Positions 14,606 through 33,413 of a stretch of DNA of 64,000 bases are shown here, one piece after another (positions within the stretch are counted from its first letter, which is position 1; every line of letters begins with the position of its first letter). The notes under the pieces were generated by a model that worked only from the letters and a program-made list of their open reading frames with translations, did no database searches and was not told the DNA's origin. The stretch covers positions 8,841 to 72,840 of the forward strand of contig JACRAC010000011.1 in assembly GCA_016213555.1 (NCBI GenBank), in the 5' to 3' direction. Origin of the DNA: Candidatus Aenigmatarchaeota archaeon. Its GTDB lineage: Archaea > Aenigmatarchaeota > Aenigmatarchaeia > GW2011-AR5 > JACRAC01. The translations under genes and the position numbers were made by a program.

Positions 14606-14642
14606 AATTAATTATTAATTTTATAGAATTTATGGTGATATT

Positions 14643-14852
14643 ATGTTCTTTGGTAGCAAGTATGATCCTGATAAAATTAAGGAGATGTTGGAGAAATTTG
14701 GAATAAAATCTGAAAAACTAAAAGTAACAGAAGTTACTATGAAGGTGGGTAAAAGGGTTTTAGTAATTAAAAATCCTGACGTTCTGTTAACACATGTAAT
14801 GGATAGAGATGTCTATCAAATTTCTGAAAGACCTAAAAAAGGTAAGAAATGA
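14643..14852 (+). CDS. NAC (nascent polypeptide-associated complex alpha) domain protein lacking the UBA domain
   Basis: IKEMLEKFGIKSEKLKVTEVTMKVGKRVLVIKNPDVLLTHVMDRDVYQISERP aligns with archaeal NAC domain; only 69 aa, ends in KKGKK. Confidence 0.65.
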   Translation: MFFGSKYDPDKIKEMLEKFGIKSEKLKVTEVTMKVGKRVLVIKNPDVLLTHVMDRDVYQISERPKKGKK

Positions 14853-16061: not shown

Positions 16062-16172
16062 TCTTTATAATCACCAAAATACTTTTGTTCAAAACGTAGA
16101 CTCAAAAATATTCAACAAGTTAAATACAATAGCATAATTAGACTATGTAGGTTTTTAAATCACATATAGAGA

Positions 16173-16796
16173 TTATTTTATAAAGGCTACAATAGACTCT
16201 CCTGCTGTTACGTTATCTCCTACCTTTGCTACTATCCTTATTTTATTTCTTGGAAGATATATATCACATCTGGAACCAAGTTTTATGATACCTATTCTCT
16301 GGCCTTTTTCCAAATACTGATTCTTATTTACATAGCTTTCTATTCTTCTGGCTACAAAGCCGGTTATTTGAACCACATTTACAGGACCTATCTTTGTACT
16401 TAGTTTTGTCAATAAGCGTTCATTATTTTCGGCATAATCTTTGTATGCAGGTTCTTTTGAACCTGAGAAACGTTTTGTTTCAAGAACCTTACCTTTTATT
16501 GGTGAACGGTTTACGTGAACATTTTGTGGTTTCATGAAAACTGCTATTCTTGAAAAGTTTCCTATAGAATCTACTTTTATCACAGTTCCATCAGCTGCAG
16601 AAACTATAGCTTTTGGGTTTTTTGGTATAATTCTTTGAGGATCTCTAAAAAATATCATGAAGAAACATGTTATAAGTGCAAGCAAAAATGACGTTATATA
16701 TAATAAAGGGTTTTTATTGTAAAATGTTATCACTGTCGATATCAATAATAATATAAATGGTGTTGTTATCCACTTGCTGCAACCACGTGCTATCAT
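16173..16796 (-). CDS. psd: Phosphatidylserine decarboxylase proenzyme (archaeal type)
   Basis: N-terminal TM, C-terminal IGIIKLGSRCDIYLP resembling the PSD self-cleavage LGST region; 207 aa. Confidence 0.7.
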   Translation of the reverse strand: MIARGCSKWITTPFILLLISTVITFYNKNPLLYITSFLLALITCFFMIFFRDPQRIIPKNPKAIVSAADGTVIKVDSIGNFSRIAVFMKPQNVHVNRSPIKGKVLETKRFSGSKEPAYKDYAENNERLLTKLSTKIGPVNVVQITGFVARRIESYVNKNQYLEKGQRIGIIKLGSRCDIYLPRNKIRIVAKVGDNVTAGESIVAFIK

Positions 16797-16855
16797 AATT
16801 CTATTTCTGATTAAGCGTTTTAAAAGGCTTTAACATAATTTAGATTAAGATAATT

Positions 16856-17749
16856 ATGGATTCAGAAGCTAGAGAAAAGTTTATACAAGCTGGAAAAATC
16901 GCAAGCGAGGTTAGGGAATTTAGTAAAGATTGGATAAAAGATGGGATGTTACTTGTTGAGATAGCTGAAAAGCTTGAGGGTCTTATAAGAGAAAAGGGTG
17001 GTCATCCAGGGTTTCCTGTAAATCTTTCTCTAAATTCTCAGGCAGCTCATTACACACCTTCTAGAAATGATAAATCTATTTTTAATTCTAAGGATGTGTT
17101 GAAAGTTGATTTAGGTGTTCATATAGATGGTTATGTTGCAGATACTGCATATACTCTTTCGTTTGATAATAGCCATAAAAAATTATTAGATGCTAGCAAA
17201 GAAGCTTTGAGAGCTGCTATAGAGCTTTGCAAACCTGGTCAAAAACTTTCTAACATCTCTGCTACAATAGAAGATACTATAAAACATTATGGCTACAAAC
17301 CTGTTGCTAATCTTTCTGGTCACGGTGTTGGTAGATATGTTCTTCATTCAGATCCTCAAATTCCTAATGTAAGATTTAGAAGCAATTACAAACTTGAAGA
17401 AGACGAAATTATAGCCATAGAGCCTTTTGCTACAGATGGCAATGGCGCTATAAAAGACGCTGAAGAGTGTTTAATATTTAGGTTTAAGGATTTGAGAACG
17501 ACAAGAAATCCAGAAGGGCGAAAAATAATAGACTTTGTTCAAAGTTATGGAGGGTTGCCTTTTGCTCAAAGATGGATTGAAACTGGTCTTAATATATCTG
17601 AGTTTAAAATAAGATTTGCAATAAGAGATCTTGTTATGAATGATATTATAAAACCTTACCCTGTTCTTATTGAAAAACCTGGGTCTTTTGTATCTCAACA
17701 TGAACATACTGTTATTGTAAAGGACGATCCTATTGTTACAACACTATAA
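16856..17749 (+). CDS. map: Methionine aminopeptidase, type 2 (archaeal)
   Basis: 297 aa, pita-bread fold motifs (DLGVHIDGYVAD, SGHGVGRY.LH, EPFAT), winged-helix insert characteristic of type 2. Confidence 0.88.
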   Translation: MDSEAREKFIQAGKIASEVREFSKDWIKDGMLLVEIAEKLEGLIREKGGHPGFPVNLSLNSQAAHYTPSRNDKSIFNSKDVLKVDLGVHIDGYVADTAYTLSFDNSHKKLLDASKEALRAAIELCKPGQKLSNISATIEDTIKHYGYKPVANLSGHGVGRYVLHSDPQIPNVRFRSNYKLEEDEIIAIEPFATDGNGAIKDAEECLIFRFKDLRTTRNPEGRKIIDFVQSYGGLPFAQRWIETGLNISEFKIRFAIRDLVMNDIIKPYPVLIEKPGSFVSQHEHTVIVKDDPIVTTL

Positions 17750-17824
17750 TAAGTCGTTACTCTTTGTGAAATAGAAGAAGTATTTATATTTTATTTAATA
17801 AATTAACATAATCTGGGGAAATTA

Positions 17825-18376
17825 ATGATAGCAATTATAAACAACGGAAGAGGAGCTGATAAGATAGCTGCTGTTTTAAGGGGTTCTAAAATATTTTCTA
17901 CAAAAGATAAGATACCACAAGCAGATGCTTATATTCTCTCAGATGGAGATATGGATGCTAAAGCTGAGAAAGCTAATATTGATTTGATACAGAAACTGGA
18001 AGTTCCGTTGCTGTCTATAGGAATAGGCTCGATATATTTAGCAAAAGCTTATGGAGGAAAATCTAAGGAACTAAAATTAAAAGTAAATAACTTAACTGTG
18101 AAACAAAAATCTCCTTTGTTATTAGATCTTAAGAAAATGTTTTCTGTTGTGGATAGCCAAAAATATTTTATATCAGAATGTCCTGAATGTTTTGGTTCTC
18201 TTGCTTCAGCTCCTGGTTATGATTATGCAATGATGCAATTTGGAGTAAATCCTGAAATAGATGAAGAACCTCTGCCAATATTCGGTCTTCATTTCAATCC
18301 AGAAGCTGGTCTAGATGGAATAAAAATCCTAAAAAACTTCCAAAGCTTTGTAGAAGTGTGGGCAAAGTATCATTAA
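17825..18376 (+). CDS. GMP-synthase GATase-subunit (GuaAA)-like protein with lost catalytic Cys/His (probable pseudoenzyme)
   Basis: Collinear with archaeal GuaAA (183 aa); catalytic region PLLSIGIGSIYLAKAYGG instead of P-I-L-G-I-C-L-G-H-Q...AYGG; FNPE instead of FHPE. Confidence 0.5.
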   Translation: MIAIINNGRGADKIAAVLRGSKIFSTKDKIPQADAYILSDGDMDAKAEKANIDLIQKLEVPLLSIGIGSIYLAKAYGGKSKELKLKVNNLTVKQKSPLLLDLKKMFSVVDSQKYFISECPECFGSLASAPGYDYAMMQFGVNPEIDEEPLPIFGLHFNPEAGLDGIKILKNFQSFVEVWAKYH

Positions 18377-18392
18377 ATTTAGAATAATAACT

Positions 18393-18875
18393 CTATCCTA
18401 TATAGTCTTGATGTTCTACTTCTATAACATCTAGGGTTGTTGGGTTTCCTTGGTATCCTTCTGGATATGTTATGTATGGTAAAAACTTATTCAAGTCTTG
18501 TGCTATTTGTATTGATGGATGTTCTTCTTCAAAAACTGCTGAACATATTTGGTAAGCTAATTGTCTAACAGATTGCTCATCTAGATAACCTAAACTGTGT
18601 AGGTATTCATGTAGCAAAACTGTAAACAAGTATGGTTTTATTAATTGATTGTTAGTTTCTGTCAATCTTCTTATAGGAGTTTTATTTAGAATTATTATAT
18701 TTGATTCTACTGGATAAAATGCTTCTGTTACATCTGTCTGAGTGTTTCCTAATTCCATAAATCCTATGTCCAATCCTGCTCTACTTTCATGTAATGTAGA
18801 CGATACTGCTTCCTTTACTAGATCGAACACTTGTTTGATGTTTTTTGTTTTTTCTAATCTTTTTGAAAATTTCAT
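18393..18875 (-). CDS. Small putative zinc metallopeptidase (HExxH)
   Basis: TVLLHEYLHSLGYLDE contains HExxH...G..D; 160 aa, no other recognisable domain. Confidence 0.3.
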   Translation of the reverse strand: MKFSKRLEKTKNIKQVFDLVKEAVSSTLHESRAGLDIGFMELGNTQTDVTEAFYPVESNIIILNKTPIRRLTETNNQLIKPYLFTVLLHEYLHSLGYLDEQSVRQLAYQICSAVFEEEHPSIQIAQDLNKFLPYITYPEGYQGNPTTLDVIEVEHQDYIG

Positions 18876-18914
18876 AATTAATTACCTATTTTTTATAGTA
18901 TCTTTCGCACTTAT

Positions 18915-21188
18915 CTAGCCAGTATAATCTACTTGTTCCATGTGTTCTGCTTTCTTTTTTTGAAGTAAGCTTTCATAGAATTTATTCATGTCTTCACTTA
19001 CAGAAGCTCTTATTTCTTCTAATGCCTTTTTGAAATCTAATTTTGTTACCTTATCTGCATCAATATTCTTTCTTAGCGAATGTAAAGCAGCTTCTCTACA
19101 AAGAGCTTCTAAGTCTGCTCCTGAATATCCATCTGTAGAATCTGCTAAATCATTTACATTTACTTCTCCTAATGGCATTTTTCCTGTAAGTATTTTCAAT
19201 ATAGATATTCTTGCCTCTCTGTCTGGTGTTGGAACTAATATTTGTCTGTCAAATCTTCCTGGTCTTAATAAAGCAGTATCTATTATATCTGGTCTGTTTG
19301 TTGCTGCAATAACAACTACGTCGTTTAATTCTTCTAAACCACTCATTTCTGCAAGCAGCTGTGATACTACTCTTTCAGTAACCTGGCTTCCTACGTCACT
19401 TCCTCTCTTAGGTGCTAGAGAGTCTATTTCATCAAAAAATACTATACATGGTGATACTTGTTTTGCTCTTCTAAAAACATCTCTTATATGTTTTTCAGAT
19501 TCTCCTACCCACATTGAAATAAGCTCTCCTGCTTTTATGTAGATAAAGTTTGCTCCTGATTCATTTGCAACTGCTTTTGCCATCAGTGTTTTTCCACATC
19601 CTGGTGGCCCGAAAAGTAATATTCCTTTTGGTGGCTTTATTCCAAGTCTTGAAAATGCTTCTGGATGGTTTAATGGCCATTCTACGGTTTCTTTTAGATG
19701 TTGTTTTACATTTTCTAGGCCTCCTATATCATTCCATTTTACATTTGGAACTTCCATAAGTACTTCACGCATAGCAGATGGCTGAACCATTTTCATAGCA
19801 TTTTGGAAATCTGATGCTGTTACTATTAACTTCTTAAGAATCTCTGGAGGCAGTGGTTTGTCTTCTTTTATAGAACCTATTTCTGGAAGAATTCTTCTTA
19901 GAGCGTACATTGCCCCTTCTTTACAAAGAGCTGCTAGATCTGCTCCAACATATCCGTAAGTTATTTCTGATATTTTTGTAAGATCTACGTCTTTTGCTAG
20001 AGGCATGCCTCTTGTATGTATTTGAAGGACTTCTTTTCTTCCATCTTTTGTTGGCACTCCTATTTCAATTTCTCTATCTAATCTTCCAGGCCTTCTAAGA
20101 GCAGGGTCTAATGAATTCGGTATATTTGTTGCTCCTATGACTATAATTCTTCCACGAGATTTCAATCCATCTAATAATGTAAGTAATTGTGATACTACTC
20201 TTTTTTCAACCTCTCCTTTTACTTCTTCTCTTTTAGGTGCTATAGAATCTATTTCATCTATGAATATTATTGATGGTGCGTTTTTCTCTGCTTCATCAAA
20301 TATCTTTCTTAAATTTTCTTCTGAGCCTCCATACCAACGACTCATTATTTCTGGTCCATTAATAACATAGAACTTTGCCCCGCTCTCATTAGCTACTGCT
20401 TTTGCTAAAAGAGTTTTTCCACATCCTGGAGTTCCATGTAGTAGTATTCCTTTTGGAGGATCTATTCCAAGTCTTTCAAAAAGCTCTGGATGCTTTAAAG
20501 GAAGTTCTATCATTTCTCTTACAAGCTGAATTTCATTATGCAATCCTCCAAGGTCTTCATACGTAACTTCTGGTATTTTTTCTTCCATTACGTCTTTTGC
20601 CTGTGGTAGTACTTCTACTTCTGTAGATTTTGTTATCCTTACAGGACCTTTTGGATCTGTTGATGTGACTACAAACTTTTCTTCTCCAAAAGGTGTTAAG
20701 ACAAAATCTATTCCAAAGAATTCTTCAAACATACTCTCAAAACTATTGTCTCTTCTAGATCTTAGAATTGGATTAGGAACTATGATATCTCCTGTCATTG
20801 CAGGTCTCATCAAGATGTTTCTTTTTAAGAGTTCTCCTGATATATGTATAACTATTCCCTTTCTTGCAGGAGCTATTACAACTGTTTTTGCTTCTTTGAC
20901 ATCAGACTTTCTTACTTTTACCTCGTCGCTTATTCCTGCTCCACAGTTTTTTCTTACAAGACCATCCATTCTTATAATATCAAGTCCTACATCTGCTGGA
21001 TAAGCTCTAAGAACTATTGCTGCAGTTTTTCTTTTTCCTTCTATTTCTATTATATCTCCTTCTGTTACTGCTATTTTTTTCATGTCTTTTGCAGATATTC
21101 TAACAATTCCTCTACCATAATCACTTCTTTCTGTAAGTTCTCCTACTTTTAATTTTATCTCTGGATCTTGTTTTATATCTCCTGTCAT
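18915..21188 (-). CDS. Cdc48/VCP-like AAA+ ATPase (N-domain + D1 + D2)
   Basis: Two Walker A ([16 protein letters not shown]), two Walker B ([16 protein letters not shown]), N-terminal double-psi barrel-like region; 757 aa. Confidence 0.93.
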
Positions 21189-21222
21189 AGTATCACTTTT
21201 TAGATTTTTCTATATATAATTA

Positions 21223-21636
21223 CTATAATTCTTCTCTTCTCCTTCTTAAATCTTTTAGTATTCTCTCTCTTTCTAAAATAACCTCTATCATATCGTATTC
21301 TACCTTTTGGCTCCATTGATCAAAAAAATCTTCCATTCTTTTCATATGCTCAAGAGCTATCATGAATACTGAGCTGCTGATTTTTTTATGAGGTATCTCA
21401 TCTAACAGCCCTGGTCTTCTATAACTATAATTTTTTCTTTCTCCTGGTATAACTTGTTGCCATCCGTATAGTTCTCTAAAGAACTTATTTCTTTCGTAAT
21501 TTGAATCGAAATTCTCACTTACTGTGTCAAAAGACACTATAACAACTTTTTCGTTTTTTCTAAAAATTATCTTCATATCAAAACCTACGGTTTCGATGCA
21601 TTCCTTTAATAGCACCTCTTTAGTGTATATGCACAC
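21223..21636 (-). CDS. Hypothetical protein (divergent from radB)
   Basis: ORF only; no recognised motifs; likely start at internal Met (MKIIF). Confidence 0.3.
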   Translation of the reverse strand: MCIYTKEVLLKECIETVGFDMKIIFRKNEKVVIVSFDTVSENFDSNYERNKFFRELYGWQQVIPGERKNYSYRRPGLLDEIPHKKISSSVFMIALEHMKRMEDFFDQWSQKVEYDMIEVILERERILKDLRRRREEL

Positions 21637-21736
21637 ACTAATTTAGTATTCTCTTAAACACTAAAGTATTTAAAGATTTCTTGTTTTATTTTTATTAATT
21701 TAACTGTTTATTTATCCTTTCTAGATATTTTAGATT

Positions 21737-22417
21737 ATGAATGTAAGAAAATTTCTAACAAACTCTCCTTTGGATAAGTTATTGGATGGTGGTATAGAAT
21801 GTGGAGTTATAACAAATGTTTATGGTCCTGCAGGTTCTGGAAAAAGTAACATATGTCTAACTTCTCTTCTTCAGGCTAAGAATAAAACATTGTACATAGA
21901 TAGTGAGGGTTCTTTTTCGTTAGATAGATTTAGGCAAATAGGCGGTGACGAAAAAAAACTTAAAAATATAATTTTTATCGATGTTCATACATGGAAAGAT
22001 CAATATGAGCAGATGATTAGGCTTGATAAAATAATACAAAAAGACAAAATAGATATTGTTATAGTTGATTCTATTGTATCTCTCTATAGATTAGAGTTGG
22101 ACAATACAGATAAGGAAAAGGTAAGCAGAACAAATATGCAGCTTGGAGCAGTATATTCTGTGTTGTCTAGAATAGCCAGAGAAAGAAATATACCTATATT
22201 GGTTACGAATCAGGTTTATGGTAGTGGTGAAGATATAGAACCTACATCTAAAACAATTGCCAGATACTGGTCAAAGTGTTTAATAGAATTTAAAAAACTC
22301 GATAAAGACAATTGTAGAAAAGCCATAATAAGAAAACATAGAAGTTTGCCTGAAGGTAAGCAAATAGATTTTGAAATATATCAAAAAGGTATTAAAGAAT
22401 ACAGGAAACTTTTTTAA
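21737..22417 (+). CDS. radB: RadB-like RecA-superfamily ATPase (Rad51 paralog)
   Basis: Walker A GPAGSGKSNICL, Walker B IDIVIVDSI, 226 aa (RadB size, lacks RadA N-terminal HhH domain). Confidence 0.75.
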   Translation: MNVRKFLTNSPLDKLLDGGIECGVITNVYGPAGSGKSNICLTSLLQAKNKTLYIDSEGSFSLDRFRQIGGDEKKLKNIIFIDVHTWKDQYEQMIRLDKIIQKDKIDIVIVDSIVSLYRLELDNTDKEKVSRTNMQLGAVYSVLSRIARERNIPILVTNQVYGSGEDIEPTSKTIARYWSKCLIEFKKLDKDNCRKAIIRKHRSLPEGKQIDFEIYQKGIKEYRKLF

Positions 22418-22433
22418 AATATCTTTGTCTTAA

Positions 22434-23159
22434 TTATTTAGATAGTTCTGAATCTATTGCTTTTTGGAATATAGTGAAAGGTTGTGCACCTTCTATTAAT
22501 TTTCCGCTGACAAAAAATGCTGGGGTTCCAGATACTCCTAGTTTTTTTCCTTCCTTAAGATCTGCAGCAACTCTATCTGCCATTGCTCCACTATCCAAGC
22601 AACTATCAAAGTTTGTTGTATTCAGATTTAATTCAGAAGCAAATTTCTTTAAATTACTTATAGATAAAAATTCATTGTTTTCGAACATCTTATCATGTAT
22701 TTTCCAAAAAGCTTCTTCACCTCCCAAGTCTTTTGCACATTCTGATGCTTCAGCTGCCTTTTGTGCATTACTATGTATATCTAAAGGGAACTGCTTATAT
22801 ACAAATTTTATTTTTTCTGGTATTATGTATTTTTCTTTAATTTCCTGTTCTGTTGTTTTATAAAATCTTGCGCAGAAAGGACATTGAAAATCTGAGAATT
22901 CAACTACTGTTACTGTTGCGCTGCTGTTTCCTTCATAGTTGTCAGTGTCAACAGTTTTTACACTATATGGTTTAGGCACAGAATACAATGCTGCAGTAGA
23001 TGCTAAAATAATTATTAGAATGAGTGCTCCAACTATAACGTAGTTTTTGTTTATTTTAGTTTCTCTTGATCTTACTTCTTCATGTTTAGATTTTTTATGC
23101 TGTGTTAAGGCTTCGTTAGTGTCAAATGATCTTTTACATTCAGAACATTCAATTGCCAT
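22434..23159 (-). CDS. DsbA-like thiol-disulfide oxidoreductase with N-terminal cytoplasmic C2H2 zinc finger and single TM
   Basis: CSECKRSFDTNEALTQHKKSKH (C-x2-C-x12-H-x4-H), TM (VIVGALILIIILASTAAL), Trx-fold FSDFQCPFC (CxxC) and DsbA-like C-terminal helical insert. Confidence 0.75.
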   Translation of the reverse strand: MAIECSECKRSFDTNEALTQHKKSKHEEVRSRETKINKNYVIVGALILIIILASTAALYSVPKPYSVKTVDTDNYEGNSSATVTVVEFSDFQCPFCARFYKTTEQEIKEKYIIPEKIKFVYKQFPLDIHSNAQKAAEASECAKDLGGEEAFWKIHDKMFENNEFLSISNLKKFASELNLNTTNFDSCLDSGAMADRVAADLKEGKKLGVSGTPAFFVSGKLIEGAQPFTIFQKAIDSELSK

Positions 23160-23207
23160 AAAATCACAAAATTACTTCTTGTCTAATCCTTTAATATCTT
23201 ATATTAA

Positions 23208-23828
23208 TTAACAACTTAAGCTACCTTCTATTTTGCATGCTGTGCTATTAGTATTTAATTTAGGTATTCCAGGGTCTTTTCCTGACGATATGTAATCTAA
23301 CACATTTGTCTGATTCCACTCATGTTCGTGATTCCATGAATCCCAGAAATATCTCCATTCATTCCATCCTATTCCTAAGCTTTTTACATATATATCATGT
23401 TCTGCTAACATTTTTCCTATTTTTCTTCCTGTCATACATGGTATGCTATAGCAATAAACAACTATATCTTTTCTTGGATTTTTTTCATTTAGTTCTTTGA
23501 ATGAGCTTACTATTCTATCTACTGCTCCATAATCAGATGTATCTTTATCTTTGTAAGCCGGTATATTTACTGCTCCTATTATGTGTTCTTTTTCATATTC
23601 TTCCTGGCTTCTTAGATCTACAAGTATAAAATTTTGATCCCCTTTATCCATAGACTTTCTAATACTATGAGGACTGACATGAACAGCATTTTCTGTTAGA
23701 TAAAAGTCTTCTATTAATTCATTTTGTGTTTTATTGTCTATACTTTTCATAACTGCTATTGCTGATATGCTTGATGTTATGCTTAGTGCTATAATTATAG
23801 CGGCTATTTTGTATGTGCTTAATTGCAT
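23208..23828 (-). CDS. Secreted/membrane-anchored rhodanese-domain sulfurtransferase
   Basis: N-terminal signal/TM, rhodanese fold (FILVDLRSQEEYEKEHIIGAVNIP ... VVYCYSIPCMTGRK with active-site Cys loop). Confidence 0.65.
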   Translation of the reverse strand: MQLSTYKIAAIIIALSITSSISAIAVMKSIDNKTQNELIEDFYLTENAVHVSPHSIRKSMDKGDQNFILVDLRSQEEYEKEHIIGAVNIPAYKDKDTSDYGAVDRIVSSFKELNEKNPRKDIVVYCYSIPCMTGRKIGKMLAEHDIYVKSLGIGWNEWRYFWDSWNHEHEWNQTNVLDYISSGKDPGIPKLNTNSTACKIEGSLSC

Positions 23829-24012
23829 TAAACCACCTTATAGTTAAATTAATGAAACAACATATAACTTTTTGTTGTATACTAGTTTCAGTATACTTTT
23901 GGAAAGCTTTTCAGGCTGTTTTTAAGCTTTTCAGTTTATTTATTCACAAGGTGTTTTTATCAATATACTACTGAAAATTTTAGCTTTTGTAGATCTTATT
24001 GCAGCTTATGCT

Positions 24013-24234
24013 TTGATAACGAAAGATTTTCATATACTTGGGATATCTATAGCTATTGTGATTATTCTTTTTTGTAAAGGGATTCCTAGTTTGTTCTCAG
24101 ACCTATTATCAAAAATTTATGGAGCTGTAGATATTTCTGTTGCTTTGATAATACTATTTGGATTTGCACCCTTTCCTATTGATGTAATGCTGTTTTTCAT
24201 AATGCTTTACAAGGGCATAATTAGCCTTGTTTAG
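24013..24234 (+). CDS. Possible small membrane protein (2 TM) - weak
   Basis: 73-aa hydrophobic ORF in otherwise non-coding 390-bp gap; no homology signal. Confidence 0.2.
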   Translation: MITKDFHILGISIAIVIILFCKGIPSLFSDLLSKIYGAVDISVALIILFGFAPFPIDVMLFFIMLYKGIISLV

Positions 24235-26437
24235 AAGTAGCTCTCTTCTTTTTTACTAGTTTTTTTGTATCAGGTGTCTTTAGTGTTATAGATTTTTTAT
24301 CTGATGGTTTTATTGTGTTCGTCTCTGTAGATTCTTTTTCCTTATTTGCTGGGCTTACTTGTCCTATTTTTGACTTATCAAACCATTCTTTTTTTGTTGG
24401 ACATCTAATGTCGACGCATGTTCTAAATGGCCTCTTACCTTCTCTGCCTATTTGTATTATAGGTGATTTACACTCTTCACAAACTTTTTCAGTAGGGGTG
24501 ATCATTCCGATTCTTGGTAGAGGAGCACTAAATTTGCATCCTTTTTTGAATCCTGTACATCCTACAAATCTATTTCCTGTTGACCATAATTTATGTATAC
24601 TTAACACGCCTTGGCATTGAGGACATGTTCCTAGTCTATTCTGCTTTTCCTGGGATTCTATTATAGCATCTGTCAAAAGTTTTCCTACTTTTGATTCTCT
24701 TTTCTTAAACTCATTACATATTTTAACCAAAGTCTTTTTTGCTTCTTCTATTACCTGATCTCTTTTTATTTTACCTCCATTAACATCTTCACATTCTTGT
24801 TCAAAATGTCTTGTTAATTTTTCTGATATAATGTCTGATGCGTTTTTCTCTAAAGTTTCTGATAATTTTTCTCCTAGTTCTGTAACTTCTATACTTCTAC
24901 CAATAATATATCCTCTGTTATAAAGAGTCTGTAGTATTTGGGCTCTGGTTGCTTTTGTACCAAGACCACGTTCTTCCATTTCCTTAATCACAGATCCTTG
25001 AGAAAATCTTGCAGGTGGTTGTGTCTTTTTAGATAATATTTTTACATCAAAAAATTGATAAACATCGCCTATCTTTATGTTTGGTAGTATTGTTTCTTCA
25101 CGGCTTGCATATTTGCCATAAAGTTCTGTCCAACCAGCTTCTAGGGTTCTTGTTCCTCTTATAAAAAATATATTTCCATTTACATCCAAAGAAACTCTTT
25201 GTGATTCTCGTTTGGCCTTCTCTCCAAAACATGCTAAAAAGCGTCTACATACTAAATCATAAACTCTTCTCTGCAAATCTCCTATTTTTTTTGGAATCTC
25301 TCCAGTAGGATAAATTGCTGGATGTGCTGCGTCTACTCTTTTCCCTTCTTCTGGCACAAGCTCTTTTTTGCTTAATAATGAAGATGATTCTTTCTCAAAC
25401 TGTTTTTGTTTTCCAAGGTTTATTATAATTTTCTTATAGTTTATATCCTTAGGTAATTTTTCTGATGCTGTTCTTGGGTAAGATATAAGACCTGCTTGAT
25501 AAAGGGCTTCTGCTATACTCATTGCTTGTTGTGGCGAATATCCGAAATATCTATAAACATCTGATAAGAAACTTGTAGTGTTGTAAGGTTTTGGGGCGCT
25601 CTGAATTATTATCTTTGTTTTTATATCTGACACTTTTGCTTTTTTACCTTTTGCTTTTTTAATAATATCTTCTGCTGTTTTTTTATCCCATAATTTATCT
25701 TTTTCGTATTCTGCTTCTATATCTTTTTTACCTATAGTTACACTTCCTGAAACCTCCCAAAAAGGTTTTGGATCAAAGGCTTTTATCTTTTTTTCATGCT
25801 TGTAAAGCATATGTAATGTAGGGCCTTGAACACGGCCTGTTGATATTATCTGGAATCTACGGCCTGTTGTCTTTATTGCAGATATTAGTGCTCTAGATAT
25901 AGAAACTCCCCACATATGATCTAAGTAATGTCTTGTTAATCCTGCTTCAACTTGACCAAAATCTATGTGCTTACTCATGTTTTCATAACTATCTAACAAC
26001 TCTTCTTTTGTCATTGTACTAAATTTCATACGTTTAGCATCTTCTTTTTTGCAAAGAAATCTCAATACATTATACCCTATTACAGATCCTTCTGTATCGT
26101 AATCAGTTGCTACGATAAAATCATCACCCTGTACAACAACTTTTTCAACTGTTTCAAAATATCTTTTGCTGAAAGAACCAAATTTAGAAGCTAGATGTGT
26201 AGGAACCCAGTCAAGATCAAATATAGGGTATGTTTGTCCCTTTTTTGTGTTCTTTAATGTGAATAAATGTCCTACAGCTGCTACTACTAAATGTTTTTTG
26301 TTGTTTTTTGTGAATTCATACCACTTTACTCCTTCTTCTGTAATATTTTCCTTCAATCCTTTTTCTGCTAATGCTTTTGCTATAGTACGCGCTGCAGTAG
26401 GTTTCTCCGCAATTATAACTGTTACCATAATTATCAC
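24221..26437 (-). CDS. topA: DNA topoisomerase type IA (Topo III/TopA) with C-terminal zinc ribbons and Lys-rich tail
   Basis: Toprim VIIAEKP...DYDTEGS, active-site LISYPRTAS, C-terminal CPQC...C..C and CEEC...C..C ribbons; no helicase domain (not reverse gyrase). Confidence 0.9.
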   Translation of the reverse strand: MIIMVTVIIAEKPTAARTIAKALAEKGLKENITEEGVKWYEFTKNNKKHLVVAAVGHLFTLKNTKKGQTYPIFDLDWVPTHLASKFGSFSKRYFETVEKVVVQGDDFIVATDYDTEGSVIGYNVLRFLCKKEDAKRMKFSTMTKEELLDSYENMSKHIDFGQVEAGLTRHYLDHMWGVSISRALISAIKTTGRRFQIISTGRVQGPTLHMLYKHEKKIKAFDPKPFWEVSGSVTIGKKDIEAEYEKDKLWDKKTAEDIIKKAKGKKAKVSDIKTKIIIQSAPKPYNTTSFLSDVYRYFGYSPQQAMSIAEALYQAGLISYPRTASEKLPKDINYKKIIINLGKQKQFEKESSSLLSKKELVPEEGKRVDAAHPAIYPTGEIPKKIGDLQRRVYDLVCRRFLACFGEKAKRESQRVSLDVNGNIFFIRGTRTLEAGWTELYGKYASREETILPNIKIGDVYQFFDVKILSKKTQPPARFSQGSVIKEMEERGLGTKATRAQILQTLYNRGYIIGRSIEVTELGEKLSETLEKNASDIISEKLTRHFEQECEDVNGGKIKRDQVIEEAKKTLVKICNEFKKRESKVGKLLTDAIIESQEKQNRLGTCPQCQGVLSIHKLWSTGNRFVGCTGFKKGCKFSAPLPRIGMITPTEKVCEECKSPIIQIGREGKRPFRTCVDIRCPTKKEWFDKSKIGQVSPANKEKESTETNTIKPSDKKSITLKTPDTKKLVKKKRATSKQG

Positions 26438-26473
26438 ATATATAATAGTATTTTAGAATTATCATAGTAAAGC

Positions 26474-27037
26474 TTAAATAGAGTTTTTTGTTATTTTTAG
26501 AATTGATTCCAAGGCTACTGGTAGCTTTGTAATATTATCTTCTCCACTAAAATGTTTCATGTTATTTTCTATTATTATCTCTGCTCCTAACTTTTCTTTA
26601 AAAAATGTTGAGTAATGCAATGACACATAAGGATCATTGTCTGAGTGTATAGCTATAAAATTCTTGCATTTTGTTTCTATCTGTTCCCAGGCTATTGGTC
26701 TTTTGAAAAAACTTTCGAGTTGATCAAATCCTAGGTTAGACGTAAATCCTGCTACAAGAATTACTCCTCCTACATTCTCGTTTTGTTTTAATGATTCCAA
26801 GTATCTCAAAATTGTAATACAGCCCAGACTATGTCCTACAAAATAACTATCTTCATCTGGATTACCTACTACATTAATCAAATGAGTTAACCATTTATCA
26901 ATTGTCGGGTTTTTTGGATCTGGCATTGAAGGAACTACTACATGAAATTTTCTTTTTTCCAATTCTTTTTTTAGCCAAGGTCTCCAACCTTCTTCTGGAT
27001 ATCCTTCCCATCCATGAATAAGAAATACTCTTTTCAT
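26474..27037 (-). CDS. Alpha/beta serine hydrolase of RBBP9/YdeN family
   Basis: VFLIHGWEG...GHSLGC nucleophile elbow, 187 aa. Confidence 0.65.
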   Translation of the reverse strand: MKRVFLIHGWEGYPEEGWRPWLKKELEKRKFHVVVPSMPDPKNPTIDKWLTHLINVVGNPDEDSYFVGHSLGCITILRYLESLKQNENVGGVILVAGFTSNLGFDQLESFFKRPIAWEQIETKCKNFIAIHSDNDPYVSLHYSTFFKEKLGAEIIIENNMKHFSGEDNITKLPVALESILKITKNSI

Positions 27038-27050
27038 TTAATCATCTTTA

Positions 27051-28667
27051 TCAAATTGCATGCGCTTGTTTTTTTATTATTTCTCCAAATGCGGGTCTTG
27101 TTATAAATATCCCTATCAAAACTCCTAATATTGTTGTGATTGCAAATCCTCTAAGAACTCCTAATCCTAGTACTGTAAGAGGTAACATAGCTCCTATTAC
27201 TGTTCCTCCTGCCCCAAGTATTATAAATAATGCACGCTTGATCCGCTCTTTTGCTGTTATTGTTTTGTCGCCTTCTCTCAAAGACTGATCTATCATTATT
27301 ATCTGCGCGTCTATACCTGTTCCTATTATTGCTATTATCGCAGCTATTGAGGCTATATCAATTGTCCATCCAATAACTACAGAAGCTCCAAAAATTATCA
27401 TGACTTCGCTCATTGATGTTACTAACATTGGTATTACAATTCCTTTCTTTCTATATCTAATTGCAACTATTATGGATACTGCAACTACAGCAGCTGTTAT
27501 TGCTAGTAATATGTTTGTTAGAAATGATGCTCCTAGATTTGGAGATATTACTTCTAGCTGAACTATCTCTATTTTTGATGGTAAGGATCCGCTCTTAAGT
27601 ATTGTTTGTAATGTTCGTTGGGTTTTTGTAGCTGTTTGTGCATCTGCACCATATCCTGTTATTGATGGTGTTTGTATTGACTGGCCTTTAAGCGATGCTG
27701 ATATACCCAAAGAATCTATAAGATCTCCGTCTAAATATAAATCTATTTTTGATGAAAGGGATCCTTCATCACTAGTTGAGAAGACTCTGTCTAAATTTTT
27801 TGTAACATATGCAAATCTCTGTGCACCTTCTTGACTTAGCTGCACTTGGAACGACCATCTATAACCTCCTTGTATTTGTTCTATTCCTGATCTCTGAGGA
27901 TCAGAATATACAAGTATTATATCTTTTCCAGTGAAAACAAGTGTTGATAAATTTGCAGTGTTATTTAATATGCTATTTACTTTTATTTTTACAGTGTCTA
28001 ACTCTACTGTATCATTTACTCTTAGAAATGTTCCGTTTATATTTATAGTGTTGTTTGAAACTTCTATAGGATATTTATTTTGAAATTCGAGTGTTTTTCC
28101 ATCTTTAGCTAATATATCAATTTTTGCCTCAAAATTGCCTTGTCTTTCCAAAAGTTCTCTAAGCTCTTCACGATTTCCACCTGCCATGATTATTTCTACA
28201 AATCCTTGTCCATCGCTTTTTATTGAACGGAAATTTGCTTCTCTCAACCCGTATATGTTTATTCTTGTCTGCAATGTTGATATTATCTGTTCTAAAGATA
28301 CGTTATCAGATTGGGGTTTTATAACAGCTCTTACACCACCTTCAATATCTAAACCAAAAGATATTTTTGTAGAAGGAGTATTCTTTACTTCTAGTCCTAG
28401 AGTGCCGTTGATTTTAAGGAGTTTATCTCCTTTGTTTGTAGATAATTTTACAACCCCTTCATAGTCTTTTTGTAAATCCTCTATTGTGGCTGATTTGTCG
28501 TTTATTTTATAAATTATGTCTCCAGCTACCAGAGGAATTGTAGAATTTTTGGCTTTGAATGTAACAGTAACCCCTTGCGGTGAAAAATTCGGCGCTATGA
28601 GTATTACTGATATAACTACAAGAAATATTAGTAATAATACTTTCCAATTTTTAAAAATATCTTTCAT
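27051..28667 (-). CDS. secD: Protein-export membrane protein SecD
   Basis: 538 aa; N-terminal TM, large periplasmic domain, C-terminal 5-TM bundle with SecD/F signature; immediately downstream of secF (archaeal F-D order). Confidence 0.8.
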   Translation of the reverse strand: MKDIFKNWKVLLLIFLVVISVILIAPNFSPQGVTVTFKAKNSTIPLVAGDIIYKINDKSATIEDLQKDYEGVVKLSTNKGDKLLKINGTLGLEVKNTPSTKISFGLDIEGGVRAVIKPQSDNVSLEQIISTLQTRINIYGLREANFRSIKSDGQGFVEIIMAGGNREELRELLERQGNFEAKIDILAKDGKTLEFQNKYPIEVSNNTININGTFLRVNDTVELDTVKIKVNSILNNTANLSTLVFTGKDIILVYSDPQRSGIEQIQGGYRWSFQVQLSQEGAQRFAYVTKNLDRVFSTSDEGSLSSKIDLYLDGDLIDSLGISASLKGQSIQTPSITGYGADAQTATKTQRTLQTILKSGSLPSKIEIVQLEVISPNLGASFLTNILLAITAAVVAVSIIVAIRYRKKGIVIPMLVTSMSEVMIIFGASVVIGWTIDIASIAAIIAIIGTGIDAQIIMIDQSLREGDKTITAKERIKRALFIILGAGGTVIGAMLPLTVLGLGVLRGFAITTILGVLIGIFITRPAFGEIIKKQAHAI

Positions 28668-28685
28668 CTAAATCACATTTTATTT

Positions 28686-29552
28686 CTAGTTTGTTTGTTT
28701 TTTCTTGTCTTGTCTTTCCAAATACCATCTAAGTATTCCTGTGTTTGTTAACCATGTTGCAGGGAGATCTATAAGCAACCCTACTATTAATACAAGGGCC
28801 ATTTGTTGCAATACATGAGATCCTGATACAAAATACATTGCAACTAAGGCTGCTATAGCGCATGCTGTCATCGTTACGCCTGTTTTCATTGCTGTTTTTA
28901 TTCTCTTTTCTACTGTCTCTTCCTTACGCTTTAACATTTCTGTTGTAAGAACTATATCTGTATCTACAGAATATCCTATTAACATCAAAATAGCTGCTAA
29001 TGTTGGTAATGACAACGATATTCCTAATAACTCCATTCCAAACATTGATATTACTATATCTGTAATAGCTGCAAGAATTACTGCCATTGATGGTGCAAAT
29101 GCCCTGAACAATAAAAATACTACAATAGCCATTATTATGAAGGCTGCTATCAATGCTATTTGTGCTTGTTTCCAGAAAACTTCTCCTAAAGATGGGCCTA
29201 CTTGTTTAATATCATAGTCTCCTGAAACACCTAGACTATCTAATTTATTTATTATTTCTGTTGTGTTTTTTGAGGAATCTGTTTCTATCAATAATGTTGT
29301 TTTTATACCTGTTACTGTTTTAAAAGTAGCATCTGGTATTTCAGCTGAAAGTTTGTTTATATCAGGTTGTTTATCTAGGGTCATTGATATAAGTGTTCCT
29401 CCTGTTAACTCTATGTCTCTTTTTACAGGAGATCCTGTAGTCACTGTATTATAAATCAAGAAGGATGATGCTACAATTAACACTACTATTGTTATAAACA
29501 TCAAAAATTTCCATTTTTTATGATAAAAATCCTCTAAAGACTGTAATGACAT
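28686..29552 (-). CDS. secF: Protein-export membrane protein SecF
   Basis: 288 aa; TM1, small periplasmic domain, C-terminal TM bundle homologous to SecD C-terminus. Confidence 0.8.
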   Translation of the reverse strand: MSLQSLEDFYHKKWKFLMFITIVVLIVASSFLIYNTVTTGSPVKRDIELTGGTLISMTLDKQPDINKLSAEIPDATFKTVTGIKTTLLIETDSSKNTTEIINKLDSLGVSGDYDIKQVGPSLGEVFWKQAQIALIAAFIIMAIVVFLLFRAFAPSMAVILAAITDIVISMFGMELLGISLSLPTLAAILMLIGYSVDTDIVLTTEMLKRKEETVEKRIKTAMKTGVTMTACAIAALVAMYFVSGSHVLQQMALVLIVGLLIDLPATWLTNTGILRWYLERQDKKKQTN

Positions 29553-30727
29553 TAAACCACATTGTGGGAGAAAATTTAAAAGGTTATAATTTGAGCTTTT
29601 TTATCCATTATCTTTACAATAAACAGATGTACGATGTTATTATTGTTGGTGGGGGTATAGCTGGATCTGTTCTTGCAGAAAAATTGATTAAGAATGATTT
29701 TAATATACTTGTAATAGAGAGGACTAAACGATTAAAGAAAGATAGTGGAATTGTAGCTAATAGAAATATTGGAAAGGTTATTCCTAGGGGTTTTATAGAA
29801 CATCGAATAAATGAGATGACTTTAGTTTCACCTTTTGGATTGTCTGCGAAAATTAGAACAAAAAATCCTTTTGCTTATATAATTGATAGGCAAAAACTCA
29901 ACAAATATTTTCTTAGTAAAATAGCTGGATTGATTGTATATGACCATATAAAGGATGTTGTTTGGGAAGATGGTTTTGTATCTGTTATAGGCGATAACAA
30001 AACATACTATGGTAAAATGATTATTGGTTGTGATGGTGCCAACTCTATTGTAAGAAAGAAGATGAATAAACATGATGGTTTTTATGCGGATAGTGATATT
30101 GTTTTTGGAGCTTTGGCTTTTGATAAAATAAAAACAGACTCTATACACGTATATTTTAACAAGCTTTTTTCTACTGATTTTTTTGCTTGGAAAATACCCC
30201 AAAACAACGAGTATGGTCTGATGGTTGGGAAGAGGCCAATGGATTTTTTAAATCATTTTAAGAAAAAATTTGGGTATGGTCTTAATGATGTTTTGGTTTA
30301 CCCAATGATAATAGGGTGTAAAAAATCTTATAGTGATAGATGTTTATTGGTTGGAGAAAGTGCAGGGCAGAACAAACCTATAACAGGTGGGGGTATAGAT
30401 CTTGCTATTGTTTCTGCTTACTATGCTTTCACTACAGTACTGGCTGCTTTTAAAAATAATAATTTTAGCTCTAAATTTTTAGAATCTTACCATAATATGT
30501 GGTATAAAGATTTTGGATCTGAAATAAATAGACAGATGTTTTTGAGGAAAGTTTATATGAAACTTAATAATGAGCAGATTGATGACTTGTTTAAAATTGT
30601 TAAAGATGATTTAGAAAAAACAGATTATATAGAAGACTATATAGAACTTAGCAATCTTACAAGAAAACTATCTTATAGTAGATTATTTTTATGGTCTTTG
30701 AGAAATTTTGGAACAATTATCAAATAA
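29546..30727 (+). CDS. Geranylgeranyl reductase family FAD-dependent oxidoreductase (start probably at 29627, MYDVIIVGGG)
   Basis: Dinucleotide-binding YDVIIVGGGIAGS, GCDGANS motif, ~365 aa core typical of digeranylgeranylglycerophospholipid reductase. Confidence 0.8.
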   Translation: MTLNHIVGENLKGYNLSFFIHYLYNKQMYDVIIVGGGIAGSVLAEKLIKNDFNILVIERTKRLKKDSGIVANRNIGKVIPRGFIEHRINEMTLVSPFGLSAKIRTKNPFAYIIDRQKLNKYFLSKIAGLIVYDHIKDVVWEDGFVSVIGDNKTYYGKMIIGCDGANSIVRKKMNKHDGFYADSDIVFGALAFDKIKTDSIHVYFNKLFSTDFFAWKIPQNNEYGLMVGKRPMDFLNHFKKKFGYGLNDVLVYPMIIGCKKSYSDRCLLVGESAGQNKPITGGGIDLAIVSAYYAFTTVLAAFKNNNFSSKFLESYHNMWYKDFGSEINRQMFLRKVYMKLNNEQIDDLFKIVKDDLEKTDYIEDYIELSNLTRKLSYSRLFLWSLRNFGTIIK

Positions 30728-31792
30728 CTATATGTTTACTTGCTTCCATTCTCTTGTTGAGAAGTCTACTACAACTGGTTTGAACTCATTTAGCAAAGAT
30801 CCTGAGTTTACAACAGTAATTGATTTGTAATTGTTTACAAATGGTTTATGGTCATGACCATAATGAACTATATCTGGGACTATATCTAATGCTAGAAAAT
30901 CTTCTTTTAACAAACAATCTCCCAAATGTCTTTTTTTCAACATAGACAAATCAAAATCATGTATCATTAAAATATTGATACCTCCTATGTTAATTATTGA
31001 TGGGTTGCTTAACGATATTATATTTTCTTTTTTTGGATTAAGTGGTAATTGTGGATAGTCATCTTCTACATCCTTTTCTCCTGGTATAATAAAAACTAGT
31101 TTATTATCACAATACTTTTCTAACTTTTCCAGATCTACAACATCTCCTGCAATGAAAAGATAGTTTATATTTTCTTGGTTAAACCATTGAAAGAATTTTT
31201 CTATATCTGATTCTGGTGATTCGTTCAAATGTAAATCTGATATAAAACATCCTTTACCGTTTCCTCTTACTGGTTCTCTTAGAGGAACATCTGGATATAT
31301 TATTTTTTTGCCGTATAGAATCTTTCCAGATGGGATTGTTTGAACCAGAACTACATCATCTAAATCACATTTTACAGGATCATCAAAAGATATTGTTACT
31401 GATCCTGTTTGATCTTCTACTTCTACAAGTGTTTTTTCTCCTTCTTTAATATCTTTAACCATACCTATTATGTAGATGTCTTCTCTTGTTTGTGTTATTT
31501 TGTTTATAGATATGAATTTTTTGTCTATTCTACTTGCTAAAATATCTTTCATTTTATTGAATTTTGAGTTAAGATACTCTATCTGATTACAGGTTTCTTT
31601 TTTTGTTAAGTTTTTCACTATTTCATATCTTTTAAGAAATGTTATGTGGTTTTTCAATACAATTAGGTCTAAATCTCTTTCTAATATATTTGTTACTTCT
31701 TTATCTGAAAACCCTTCTAGATAAGACAGTGCTTCTGGTGATATTAACTTTTGTCTGGTAAAAAATAGTCTAACTAATTCTTCTTTTTTCAT
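30728..31792 (-). CDS. DNA polymerase II small subunit (DP1)-like / B-subunit-like protein: OB-fold + calcineurin-like phosphoesterase with degenerate motif III
   Basis: N-terminal region + OB-like segment (IYIIGMVKDIKEGEKTLVEVEDQTGSV) then PDE motifs I SDLHLN, II AGDVVD, III IIPGEKD (GNHD degenerate), V HYGHDH; directly downstream of orc1/cdc6 as in cdc6-dp1 arrangements. Confidence 0.55.
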   Translation of the reverse strand: MKKEELVRLFFTRQKLISPEALSYLEGFSDKEVTNILERDLDLIVLKNHITFLKRYEIVKNLTKKETCNQIEYLNSKFNKMKDILASRIDKKFISINKITQTREDIYIIGMVKDIKEGEKTLVEVEDQTGSVTISFDDPVKCDLDDVVLVQTIPSGKILYGKKIIYPDVPLREPVRGNGKGCFISDLHLNESPESDIEKFFQWFNQENINYLFIAGDVVDLEKLEKYCDNKLVFIIPGEKDVEDDYPQLPLNPKKENIISLSNPSIINIGGINILMIHDFDLSMLKKRHLGDCLLKEDFLALDIVPDIVHYGHDHKPFVNNYKSITVVNSGSLLNEFKPVVVDFSTREWKQVNI

Positions 31793-31833: not shown

Positions 31834-33087
31834 TCAATAAGAATTGATTTTTAACAAAATACCTTCTATTTTTGCTATCATCTCCTCGTTTACTGCAAAC
31901 ACAACTTCTCTAAGTTTACCATATCTGCCTCTAGAAGATATTTTTGTGTTTATTATTCCCAATGTTTCATACTCGTTGACAAGGTCGCATACTCTTCTCT
32001 GTGTTAGTGGATTGAGACCATTATTTTCACAAAGCTTGTTGTATGATTTGTAAATATCGCTTGTTAATATTCTTGAATCTATCCACTGTCCTTTGCTTGT
32101 TTTTCTAAGAGACATCATACTCTCTAACACAATTTGTGAATGTCTTGGTTGTGACCTTACTATTTCAGTAAGTTTGTCTGTATTTATTCTCTCTTTAGCC
32201 ACATCTAACTGAATCTCTGTTATTGTGGTTTGGCCTGATCTTTCGCTTATTTCTGCGGCGACTCTTATAAGGTCCAAAGCTCGGCGAGCATCACCATGCT
32301 CTTGGGCAGCTAGAGCAGCGCACTTGTTTAGTACACTATCATCTATTGTGTTTTCATAAAAAGCATCTGATATTCTCAATGATATAATGTCTTTTAACTG
32401 CTCGGCATTGTATGGTTTGAATATTATTTCTTCTTCTGCTAGAGATGAACGGACCCTAGGGTCTATTTTTTCTGCAAAATATATGTTGTTTGTTATTCCT
32501 ACAACTGAGATGTTTGAATCTGATCTTGATATGTTGTATAGGAACTCGTCTCCTATTTTATTTACCAAACAATCTATCTCATCAAAAACCAATATTATGT
32601 TTTGTTTTGATGCTTCTTCAAAAAATTTCTTATATAAAACATTGGTTGCTATTCCTGTTTCTGGAACTAACACATCAAACTCTTTTAATATCTGAGAAAG
32701 TATCCTATACTCTGTATCAGATACTTTTTTCATCTTACAGTTTATGTATATTGTTTTATACGTATTATTGGAAATTTTTGAGAGCTGTTCTAATATATAT
32801 TTTATAGTAACTGTTTTGCCGCAACCAATACCTCCATAAATAAAAACATTGCTAGGTTTGTAGCCTTTTAATATAGGAGCTAGAATAGATGATATTATTT
32901 CTATCTCAGTGTCTCTATGCACTATAGTGTTTGGTAGGAAGTTTGTTGAAAGAACTTCCCTGTTTTTAAATAAAGACTCTTTATACAAATAGTTATTAAA
33001 AATGTTTTGTACTTTATTATCCATCATTTCATTGACCGTTATTTCTGATGGAAGTTTAAAGGAAATAGACCCTACCAAACTACTCAC
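31834..33087 (-). CDS. cdc6: Orc1/Cdc6 replication initiator
   Basis: AAA+ Walker A GGIGCGKT, Walker B ILVFDEID, sensor motifs, C-terminal winged helix; 417 aa. Confidence 0.9.
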   Translation of the reverse strand: MSSLVGSISFKLPSEITVNEMMDNKVQNIFNNYLYKESLFKNREVLSTNFLPNTIVHRDTEIEIISSILAPILKGYKPSNVFIYGGIGCGKTVTIKYILEQLSKISNNTYKTIYINCKMKKVSDTEYRILSQILKEFDVLVPETGIATNVLYKKFFEEASKQNIILVFDEIDCLVNKIGDEFLYNISRSDSNISVVGITNNIYFAEKIDPRVRSSLAEEEIIFKPYNAEQLKDIISLRISDAFYENTIDDSVLNKCAALAAQEHGDARRALDLIRVAAEISERSGQTTITEIQLDVAKERINTDKLTEIVRSQPRHSQIVLESMMSLRKTSKGQWIDSRILTSDIYKSYNKLCENNGLNPLTQRRVCDLVNEYETLGIINTKISSRGRYGKLREVVFAVNEEMIAKIEGILLKINSY

Positions 33088-33413
33088 CCCAAATTAAATA
33101 TTTTAATTGTCTAAATAGAAGATTTTTAGATCTTATAAGAGACAAAAACAAACAATTTTATAAACCACTATAAAATTGCTTAACCTTTTTTGTATTAATT
33201 GGTATATAAAGTGTGTATATTTTAGAACAAATATATTTGAAAATGGTTATGACCCCTATATTTCTTTTGGAAACTACTATATAACAATATATTTAACAAT
33301 GTTATAGGAAATAGAGGTAGTTGTAAGAGAAATTTTAATTAAAATAGGTATTTTAAAAGAAATATAGGTTGTTTGTTAGTAGTTTGAAAATATTTTCTAA
33401 AAATTAAAAACAA
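33088..33413. promoter_or_regulatory. Candidate replication origin (oriC) / orc1 upstream region with ORB-like repeats and inverted 11-mer pair flanking an AT-rich stretch
   Basis: 326-bp AT-rich non-coding region immediately upstream of orc1/cdc6. CCTATATTTCT at 33254-33264 and its reverse complement AGAAATATAGG at 33359-33369. ATAGG cores at ~33256, 33306, 33345, 33364. A TGGAAAC half-ORB at 33270. Confidence 0.5.

Follow-up and report, generated by a model that had tools for sequence, protein, structure and literature searches.

Eukaryotic replicative DNA polymerases are chimeras of a family B core, a zinc-finger domain derived from DP2 (the large subunit of PolD) and an inactivated B subunit derived from DP1, the PolD small subunit. 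The closest described counterpart comes from the Aenigmatarchaeota. Kazlauskas et al. (2020) reported that the DP1 group termed 'Aenigma_GB_GCA_002789635-like' is inactive, that DP2 is missing from most sequenced Aenigmarchaeota, and that the B6 PolBs of this phylum carry C-terminal metal-binding motifs, one in aenigma1 and two in aenigma2, whose nearest match is DP2; in their proposal, PolB took the place of DP2, and a group of this kind may have given rise to the B subunits of eukaryotes (PMC7544198). A study published in 2025 found Aenigmatarchaeota and Baldrarchaeia to be the sole archaea with DP1 but without DP2, attributed the aenigma2 sequences to Baldrarchaeia contamination, and supported, by yeast two-hybrid assays and AlphaFold3 modelling, binding of DP1 to PolB fused to the DP2 C-terminal domain (PolB-DP2CTD) in both lineages (PMC12680538). 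As one of just two archaeal lineages reported with a eukaryote-like architecture, Aenigmatarchaeota thus offer a model for the formation of the chimera. Here we describe a 64,000-nt stretch of Candidatus Aenigmatarchaeota archaeon DNA (contig JACRAC010000011.1 of assembly GCA_016213555.1, positions 8,841 to 72,840; hereafter the window) that encodes both a short DP1-like protein, from a gene that we call dp1L, and a PolB. We estimate at roughly 85% the probability that the dp1L product is the non-catalytic B subunit of a two-subunit replicative polymerase in which the window PolB, and not DP2, is the catalytic subunit. The kind of system is already known, having been described in 2020 and its interaction tested in 2025. 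The window is a clean example that holds both partners, both of them misannotated at NCBI, and its value lies in confirmation, corrected annotation and synteny detail. The additions made here are minor, namely the synteny and an inversion, a metal site that has decayed by degrees, and a 29-nt element conserved upstream of orc1.

The dp1L gene and its immediate neighbours are the following.

30728..31792, minus strand: dp1-like gene (dp1L), an open reading frame of 354 aa with an ATG start; three domains, namely N-terminal helical, OB fold and minimal PDE (calcineurin-like phosphoesterase)
31834..33087, minus strand: orc1/cdc6 replication initiator, 417 aa (Cdc6_C 1.8e-23, Cdc6_lid 2.5e-20, TIGR02928 1e-109)
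29546..30727, plus strand: geranylgeranyl-reductase-family gene (GGR; TIGR02032 1e-36), convergent to dp1L

The original prediction, made from the sequence alone, had placed here a short DP1-like gene immediately downstream of orc1/cdc6, with no dp2 beside it and an unrelated reductase on the other strand as the next gene, and this arrangement was recovered in full. dp1L follows orc1/cdc6 on the same strand at a distance of 41 nt, its ATG is preceded by a GTGAT Shine-Dalgarno-like sequence, and its stop codon directly abuts that of the GGR gene, in a window of ~31% G+C. At 354 aa, the product is shorter than canonical DP1s, which span 440-620 aa. It is identical to NCBI MBI4895154.1, a 'metallophosphoesterase family protein' from a Candidatus Aenigmarchaeota metagenome-assembled genome (MAG). 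A phmmer search of the six-frame translation with a DP2 query revealed no DP2-like open reading frame anywhere in the 64 kb.

Profile, sequence and fold comparisons all assigned the dp1L protein to the DP1 lineage, as originally predicted. Its top five NCBIfam matches were models of the PolD small subunit ('DNA polymerase II small subunit'); among them, NF003118 (8e-37) came first with 127 bits against an equivalog cutoff of 445, and the scores for the remaining four likewise stayed far under their cutoffs. All six PDB sequence matches retrieved by phmmer were DP1 chains (E 9e-12 to 2e-9). Pfam returned the generic Metallophos_2 family (9.6e-14, aa 182-335) and a partial DNA_pol_E_B match (PF04042, aa 222-286) whose 27.2 bits fall just under the gathering score of 29.1. 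An AlphaFold2 (AF2) model computed from 109 family sequences reached a predicted local distance difference test score (pLDDT) of 94.5 and a predicted template modelling score (pTM) of 0.89. When this model was compared with the PDB using Foldseek, the nine top matches were Pyrococcus abyssi DP1 (best E 2.3e-24, TM 0.74, 24% identity), followed by ~40 B-subunit chains of Pol epsilon, delta, alpha and zeta (E 1e-18 to 1e-9, TM 0.46-0.63, 10-17% identity). Mre11/SbcD proteins, named in the original prediction as the best matches that would speak against DP1, were absent from the Foldseek top 50 and from the Pfam, NCBIfam and PDB sequence matches. On the sequence, profile and fold evidence, we reject the identification of dp1L as a generic YfcE phosphoesterase or an Mre11/SbcD protein.

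The model predicts the three-domain architecture of DP1, that is, a small N-terminal helical domain, an OB fold and a compact PDE fold, which map to the gene as follows, together with the motif that is discussed below.

31613..31792, minus strand: N-terminal helical domain, aa 1-60, with helices at 3-12, 19-25 and 30-38 (DSSP of the AF2 model)
31295..31585, minus strand: OB fold, aa ~70-166, with five strands at 106-165 in the AF2 model
30731..31261, minus strand: minimal PDE domain, aa 178-354 (Metallophos_2 match and motif positions)
31070..31081, minus strand: degenerate motif III, GEKD for GNHD (translation and alignment to canonical DP1)

Residues 1-60 would compare with the N-terminal domain of DP1 and B subunits, as suggested by a Foldseek match of the model to full-length Pol epsilon subunit 2 (7pfo_A). 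The OB fold contains four acidic residues that are invariant in the family (E126, D127, D145 and D146), and phmmer alignments showed an 'EVEDxTG' motif common to the dp1L protein and the DP1s of P. abyssi and T. kodakarensis. Canonical DP1 (P. abyssi, PDB 5IHE/6HMS) is its closest match in sequence and fold, and further shares with it the SNP motif and a gene position directly downstream of orc1/cdc6. On the other hand, the dp1L protein is ~100-260 aa shorter than canonical DP1, its PDE domain is about half the canonical size, it falls under the equivalog cutoffs, it has lost the Asn and His of motif III, and its inferred partner is PolB instead of DP2.

The state of the active site was read from an alignment, guided by a family hidden Markov model (HMM), of the window protein, 140 new representatives taken from an exhaustive profile search, together with two canonical DP1s. 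Motifs I (SDLHLN, aa 185-190), II (GDVVD, aa 216-220) and V (GHDH, aa 312-315) are kept, as anticipated, alongside GEKD at aa 238-241 and MIHD at aa 276-279. At nine diagnostic columns, nearly all canonical DP1s (~60 sequences of 440-620 aa) read D-H-D-N-H-D-H-H-H, whereas the window protein reads D-H-D-E-K-D-H-H-H. Correct alignment did not restore motif III, an outcome that would have overturned the original prediction: the metal-ligand Asn is replaced by Glu (E239) and the proton-donor His by Lys (K240). This His is equivalent to H451 of P. abyssi DP1, which has been described as the proton donor, and H451A is the standard exonuclease-deficient form of PolD, with an unaltered metal site (PMC6355029). 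Given the loss of both motif III residues, the 3'-5' exonuclease of dp1L is most likely dead, which lends support to the earlier suggestion, likewise drawn from sequence, of a protein that has lost its nuclease as eukaryotic B subunits have.

The same decay runs through the family. In the short proteins (330-410 aa) of this alignment the motif III His is almost never present, and among 113 full-length members only two have His at this position, the others having A, K, V, M, I, S or T; the residue varies even among relatives 66-89% identical to the dp1L protein. At the Asn position, 43 of the 113 have E and 38 have N. The dp1L protein itself keeps six of the seven metal ligands (D186, H188, D217, H278, H313 and H315), as do 71 of the 113, while about one family member in five lacks most of them. 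Ranked by conservation in a 109-sequence alignment (A1), the motif III His stands at the 3rd percentile, the Asn at the 23rd and the other ligands between the 60th and the 85th. The most conserved columns are non-catalytic (S95, E126, D127, D145, R172, S262-N263-P264, K287-R288, P306-D307, N321-Y322-K323 and R347), and more than 200 intact homologues have 12 invariant non-catalytic residues in common. With the conserved residues non-catalytic and the catalytic columns variable, selection in the dp1L family is no longer centred on catalysis.

The proposed partner is encoded elsewhere in the window.

10707..13265, plus strand: family B DNA polymerase (PolB), 852 aa (DNA_pol_B 5e-111, DNA_pol_B_exo1 3e-36)
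13179..13262, plus strand: PolB C-terminal zinc module, ICSSCGKIHRRPPLSMVCDCGTSVALRT (translation; homologous to the DP2 Zn-III finger)

This protein corresponds to NCBI MBI4895134.1, annotated as 'hypothetical protein HY831_01445', and its open reading frame opens at a TTG codon at 10692. Its best PDB match is the catalytic chain of human Pol delta (6s1m, 1.6e-100), ahead of Thermococcales PolB. As read in the translation, both the exonuclease motifs (DIE, NxxxFD and YxxxD) and the polymerase motifs (DxxSLYPS, KxxxNSxYG and YGDTDS) are intact. PolB ends in the zinc module CSSCGKIHRRPPLSMVCDCG, with the finger pattern CxxC-GKIHRRPPL-CxC. A profile built from 25 Aenigmatarchaeota PolB C-termini (consensus WEEFVCxKCxKSYRRMPLxGxCECGGELL) found DP2 chains as its three best PDB matches, all at the Zn-III finger (6knb_B, 6.5e-8; 6hms_B, residues 1118-1150), and hhalign paired it with the C-terminal domain of a Woesearchaeota DP2 at a probability of 97.7% (E 1.5e-12). 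We infer from these similarities that the finger is a remnant of the DP2 Zn-III module. In PolD, the basic loop of Zn-III, with R1131/R1132 of a KxRRxP motif, enters an electronegative groove of DP1, between its OB and PDE domains (PMC6355029), and the RRxP motif of PolB corresponds to these DP1-contacting arginines.

PolB length varies among the related loci. The open reading frames span ~1310-1390 aa in L008 (11180-15349), L010, L012, L016, L026 and L027, as compared with ~860-920 aa elsewhere. In L008, the polymerase domain of PolB is interrupted by an intein that carries a LAGLIDADG endonuclease; the other long PolBs were judged by length alone.

Gene order was compared by a one-genome-per-species scan, which comprised 39 Aenigmatarchaeota-type loci and two canonical controls. 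The 39 species-level relatives are 39-67% identical to the dp1L protein, and all taxon-named ones are Aenigmatarchaeota. The order that recurs in these loci is HMG-CoA synthase, thiolase, DUF35, orc1, dp1L and polB. Indeed, orc1 adjoins dp1L in every related locus whose contig reaches upstream, although in a convergent orientation in L034. polB was seen in 34 of the 39 loci and, in 29 of these 34, follows dp1L directly on the same strand, within 1 kb; the two genes are separated by at most 11 nt or overlap in eight of the 29. Both controls, from Methanosarcinales (L040) and Woesearchaeota (L041), have the order orc1, DP1 (508 aa) and DP2; the original prediction had invoked such a cdc6-dp1-dp2 linkage for Euryarchaeota. 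No DP2 core was detected in the window or in the 39 related loci; the latter gave phmmer matches to DP2 solely in the Zn-III region of the PolB C-termini, and the window gave none. The order orc1-dp1L-polB in the relatives, set beside orc1-DP1-DP2 in the controls, places polB in the slot that dp2 holds elsewhere. Keyword searches of the main texts of PMC7544198 and PMC12680538 brought up no description of this orc1-dp1-polB synteny.

In the window, this linkage has been broken by a rearrangement that maps as follows.

10692..30727, no strand assigned: ~20-kb inverted block (polB ... TctA ... SecD-SecF-GGR), from the synteny map

In the relatives, dp1L is followed by polB, TctA, SecD, SecF and GGR, and then by a homologue of W9713. 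The window reads instead W9713, then polB, TctA ... SecD, SecF and GGR, and then dp1L, with both flanks conserved. A clean, lineage-specific inversion of ~20 kb, as judged against most Aenigmatarchaeota, thus moved polB off and placed the reductase beside dp1L, which accounts for the neighbour on the opposite strand. The reductase likewise adjoins dp1L in L002 (66% identity), one of the two closest relatives; in the other, L001, the contig stops just past dp1L.

A second, more divergent clade of short DP1-like proteins (P0150-P0225, 375-410 aa) has active sites that are variously decayed. In the one genomic context examined from this clade (L042:8001-11883), the gene for P0168 (388 aa) lies 1 nt ahead of that for a PolB that ends in CxxC...RRIPL...CxxC, a coupling like that of dp1L and polB, with no orc1 upstream.

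According to the reading that we favour, the dp1L protein would descend from the PolD small subunit, keeping its helical N-terminal domain, OB fold and PDE fold, with the PDE reduced to a minimal core in which the Asn (to Glu) and His (to Lys) of motif III were lost. Proofreading would be supplied by the intact exonuclease domain of PolB. The two proteins would be joined through the C-terminal zinc finger of PolB, the putative Zn-III remnant, whose Arg-Arg loop would insert in the acidic OB/PDE groove of dp1L as it does in PolD and in eukaryotic Pol alpha, delta and epsilon. Several observations weigh against this reading. dp1L and polB are unlinked in the window, lying 17.5 kb apart on opposite strands. 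The C-terminal domain of the window PolB is unusually short, most relatives having a WEEF motif and GGELLxxYHG flanks that are missing here, and the Aenigmatarchaeota domain in general has been called short or 'degenerate' (PMC12680538). Finally, six of the seven ligands are retained, so that the protein may still contain a metal centre and be hydrolytically active to some degree; these ligands could reflect a structural metal site, a residual or altered activity, or slow decay.

This last point feeds an alternative in which dp1L would still act as a metal-dependent nuclease or phosphoesterase, Glu239 serving as a ligand and Lys240 or another residue as proton donor, and would provide the PolB complex with a second exonuclease or an end-processing activity. 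The six remaining ligands, all present in the window protein and kept together in most of its full-length relatives, speak for it, as does the fact that the best Pfam/TIGR matches of the PDE domain belong to the YfcE-type Metallophos_2 family. Members of that family are active with Cys in place of the motif III His. However, the column of this His is among the most variable of the family, the ligand columns reach only intermediate percentiles of conservation, and ligand-poor members (L010, L016, L019, L024 and L031) are still linked to polB. Moreover, H451A abolishes the exonuclease of DP1 (PMC6355029), and PolB already has an intact exonuclease domain of its own. We therefore regard an active dp1L enzyme as unlikely.

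The position of dp1L beside orc1, which is that of a canonical dp1, together with the fact that the inspected DNA amounts to 64 kb of the genome, would also suit an ordinary PolD small subunit serving a DP2 encoded elsewhere. This is highly improbable in view of the 127 bits scored against a cutoff of 445 and of the failure to reach any NCBIfam DP1 equivalog cutoff, the absence of the catalytic His and Asn, the reduced length, and the relatives that fill the dp2 slot with a polB bearing the DP2 docking finger. Furthermore, two independent surveys found DP2 absent from most or all of the phylum (PMC7544198, PMC12680538), which suggests a genome-wide absence of DP2 here as well. We give hardly any credence to the notion that dp1L is a stand-alone phosphoesterase of the Mre11/SbcD or YfcE type acting outside replication, or a functionless decaying relic. 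The bare NCBI label and the DNA_pol_E_B score just under the gathering threshold are compatible with it, but the top 50 structural matches include no Mre11, the model has an OB fold and a DP1-type N-terminal domain, more than 200 homologues are intact with their 12 invariant non-catalytic residues, and the synteny with orc1 and polB is conserved.

Set against the published Aenigmatarchaeota system (PMC7544198), the window belongs to the same phylum, has the inactive PDE motif set and no DP2 nearby, and contains, along with dp1L, a Delta-like PolB with a single C-terminal motif resembling DP2 Zn-III. It differs in the ~20-kb inversion that splits dp1L from polB, in a motif III that reads GEKD and not the commoner GNxD, and in a PolB C-terminal domain at the short end of the range. 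Nothing essential differs, and dp1L encodes an ordinary member of that system with a B6-aenigma1-type partner. The DP1 and PolB3-DP2CTD of Baldrarchaeia (PMC12680538) are alike in the lack of DP2, the retention of DP1 and the fusion of the DP2 C-terminal domain to PolB, but there this domain is full length and eukaryote/DP2-like, in contrast to the shorter, 'degenerate' one of Aenigmatarchaeota. Eukaryotic B subunits (PF04042; 5VBN, 6TNY_B, 4Y97) have an OB fold and a PDE fold that can be superposed on the dp1L model, and accompany a family B polymerase as its second subunit, held via the C-terminal zinc module of the catalytic subunit. Unlike dp1L, which keeps six metal ligands, they have lost all active-site residues, and their identity (12-16%) and fold scores to dp1L are lower than those of DP1. 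The C-terminal domain of the window PolB, in turn, consists of one bare finger and lacks both the helical bundle and the CysA motif of the eukaryotic system.

The occupation of the dp2 slot (orc1-dp1-X) by polB in most Aenigmatarchaeota, with the docking finger as the only part of DP2 present, raises the possibility that the chimera arose in situ, a Delta-like polB replacing the 5' ~95% of dp2 while the 3' zinc-finger codons were kept. We hold this idea only tentatively, as we do the further notion that the six-ligand site still has a structural or catalytic role. Were the in situ origin true, the locus would preserve a record of the recombination event from which eukaryote-type polymerases are proposed to have arisen.

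Several further observations concern the surroundings of these genes. The inverted block of the window holds ~10 kb of extra genes at 15.2-26.4 kb (CDC48, topoisomerase IA and others), none of which was seen between TctA and SecD in the relatives. Upstream, the mevalonate-pathway trio of HMG-CoA synthase, thiolase and a DUF35/ChsH2-type OB protein, at 33414-36167 in the window, directly precedes orc1 across the phylum (loci L001-L039). A variant order occurs in L034 (7219-12360), in which polB is directly upstream of dp1L with overlapping open reading frames and the convergent orc1 lies on the opposite side. One MAG (RIFCSPLOWO2_01_FULL_48_10) contains two distinct orc1-dp1L-polB loci, L019 and L024 (JAGVVU010000018 and JAGVVU010000023), and L024 is identical, in the compared regions, to L025 of another assembly (GW2011_AR5); this pattern suggests a mixed bin or a duplicated locus.

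A 611-aa open reading frame at 7802-9637 on the minus strand was considered as a cryptic DP2 and rejected, as it gave no DP2 signal and merely a weak DUF6541 match (0.0022). It has no significant Pfam match, adjoins an STT3 oligosaccharyltransferase gene and probably encodes a membrane protein of a glycosylation cluster. Scans of the window for tRNAs and Rfam families returned no matches, and a sigma-70 promoter/terminator scan, which is not meaningful for an archaeon, stayed below shuffle expectation.

The intergenic region upstream of orc1 (33088-33413) contains one further conserved feature.

33291..33319, plus strand: conserved 29-nt non-coding element; palindromic core TATAACAxTGTTATA, then [AG]GAAATAxAGGT

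It lies 204-232 nt upstream of the orc1 start and is unique in the window, with a chance expectation of 0.07. nhmmer located it once, in the same orientation and 140-240 nt upstream of orc1, in at least 20 related Aenigmatarchaeota loci. The element may be a candidate Orc1-binding site, similar to an origin recognition box (ORB), or a regulatory site. GC skew did not pinpoint an origin at orc1, the cumulative minimum falling at ~36-40 kb in the window, and gene orientation, with the genes at 33.4-39.6 kb on the minus strand, gives no clear origin placement upstream of orc1. The surrounding intergenic region has a G+C content of 23% and harbours four [CG]AAACTAC-like words in both orientations, and an imperfect inverted repeat of 27 nt (33266-33292 and 33364-33390, 74% complementary) brackets the 29-nt element.

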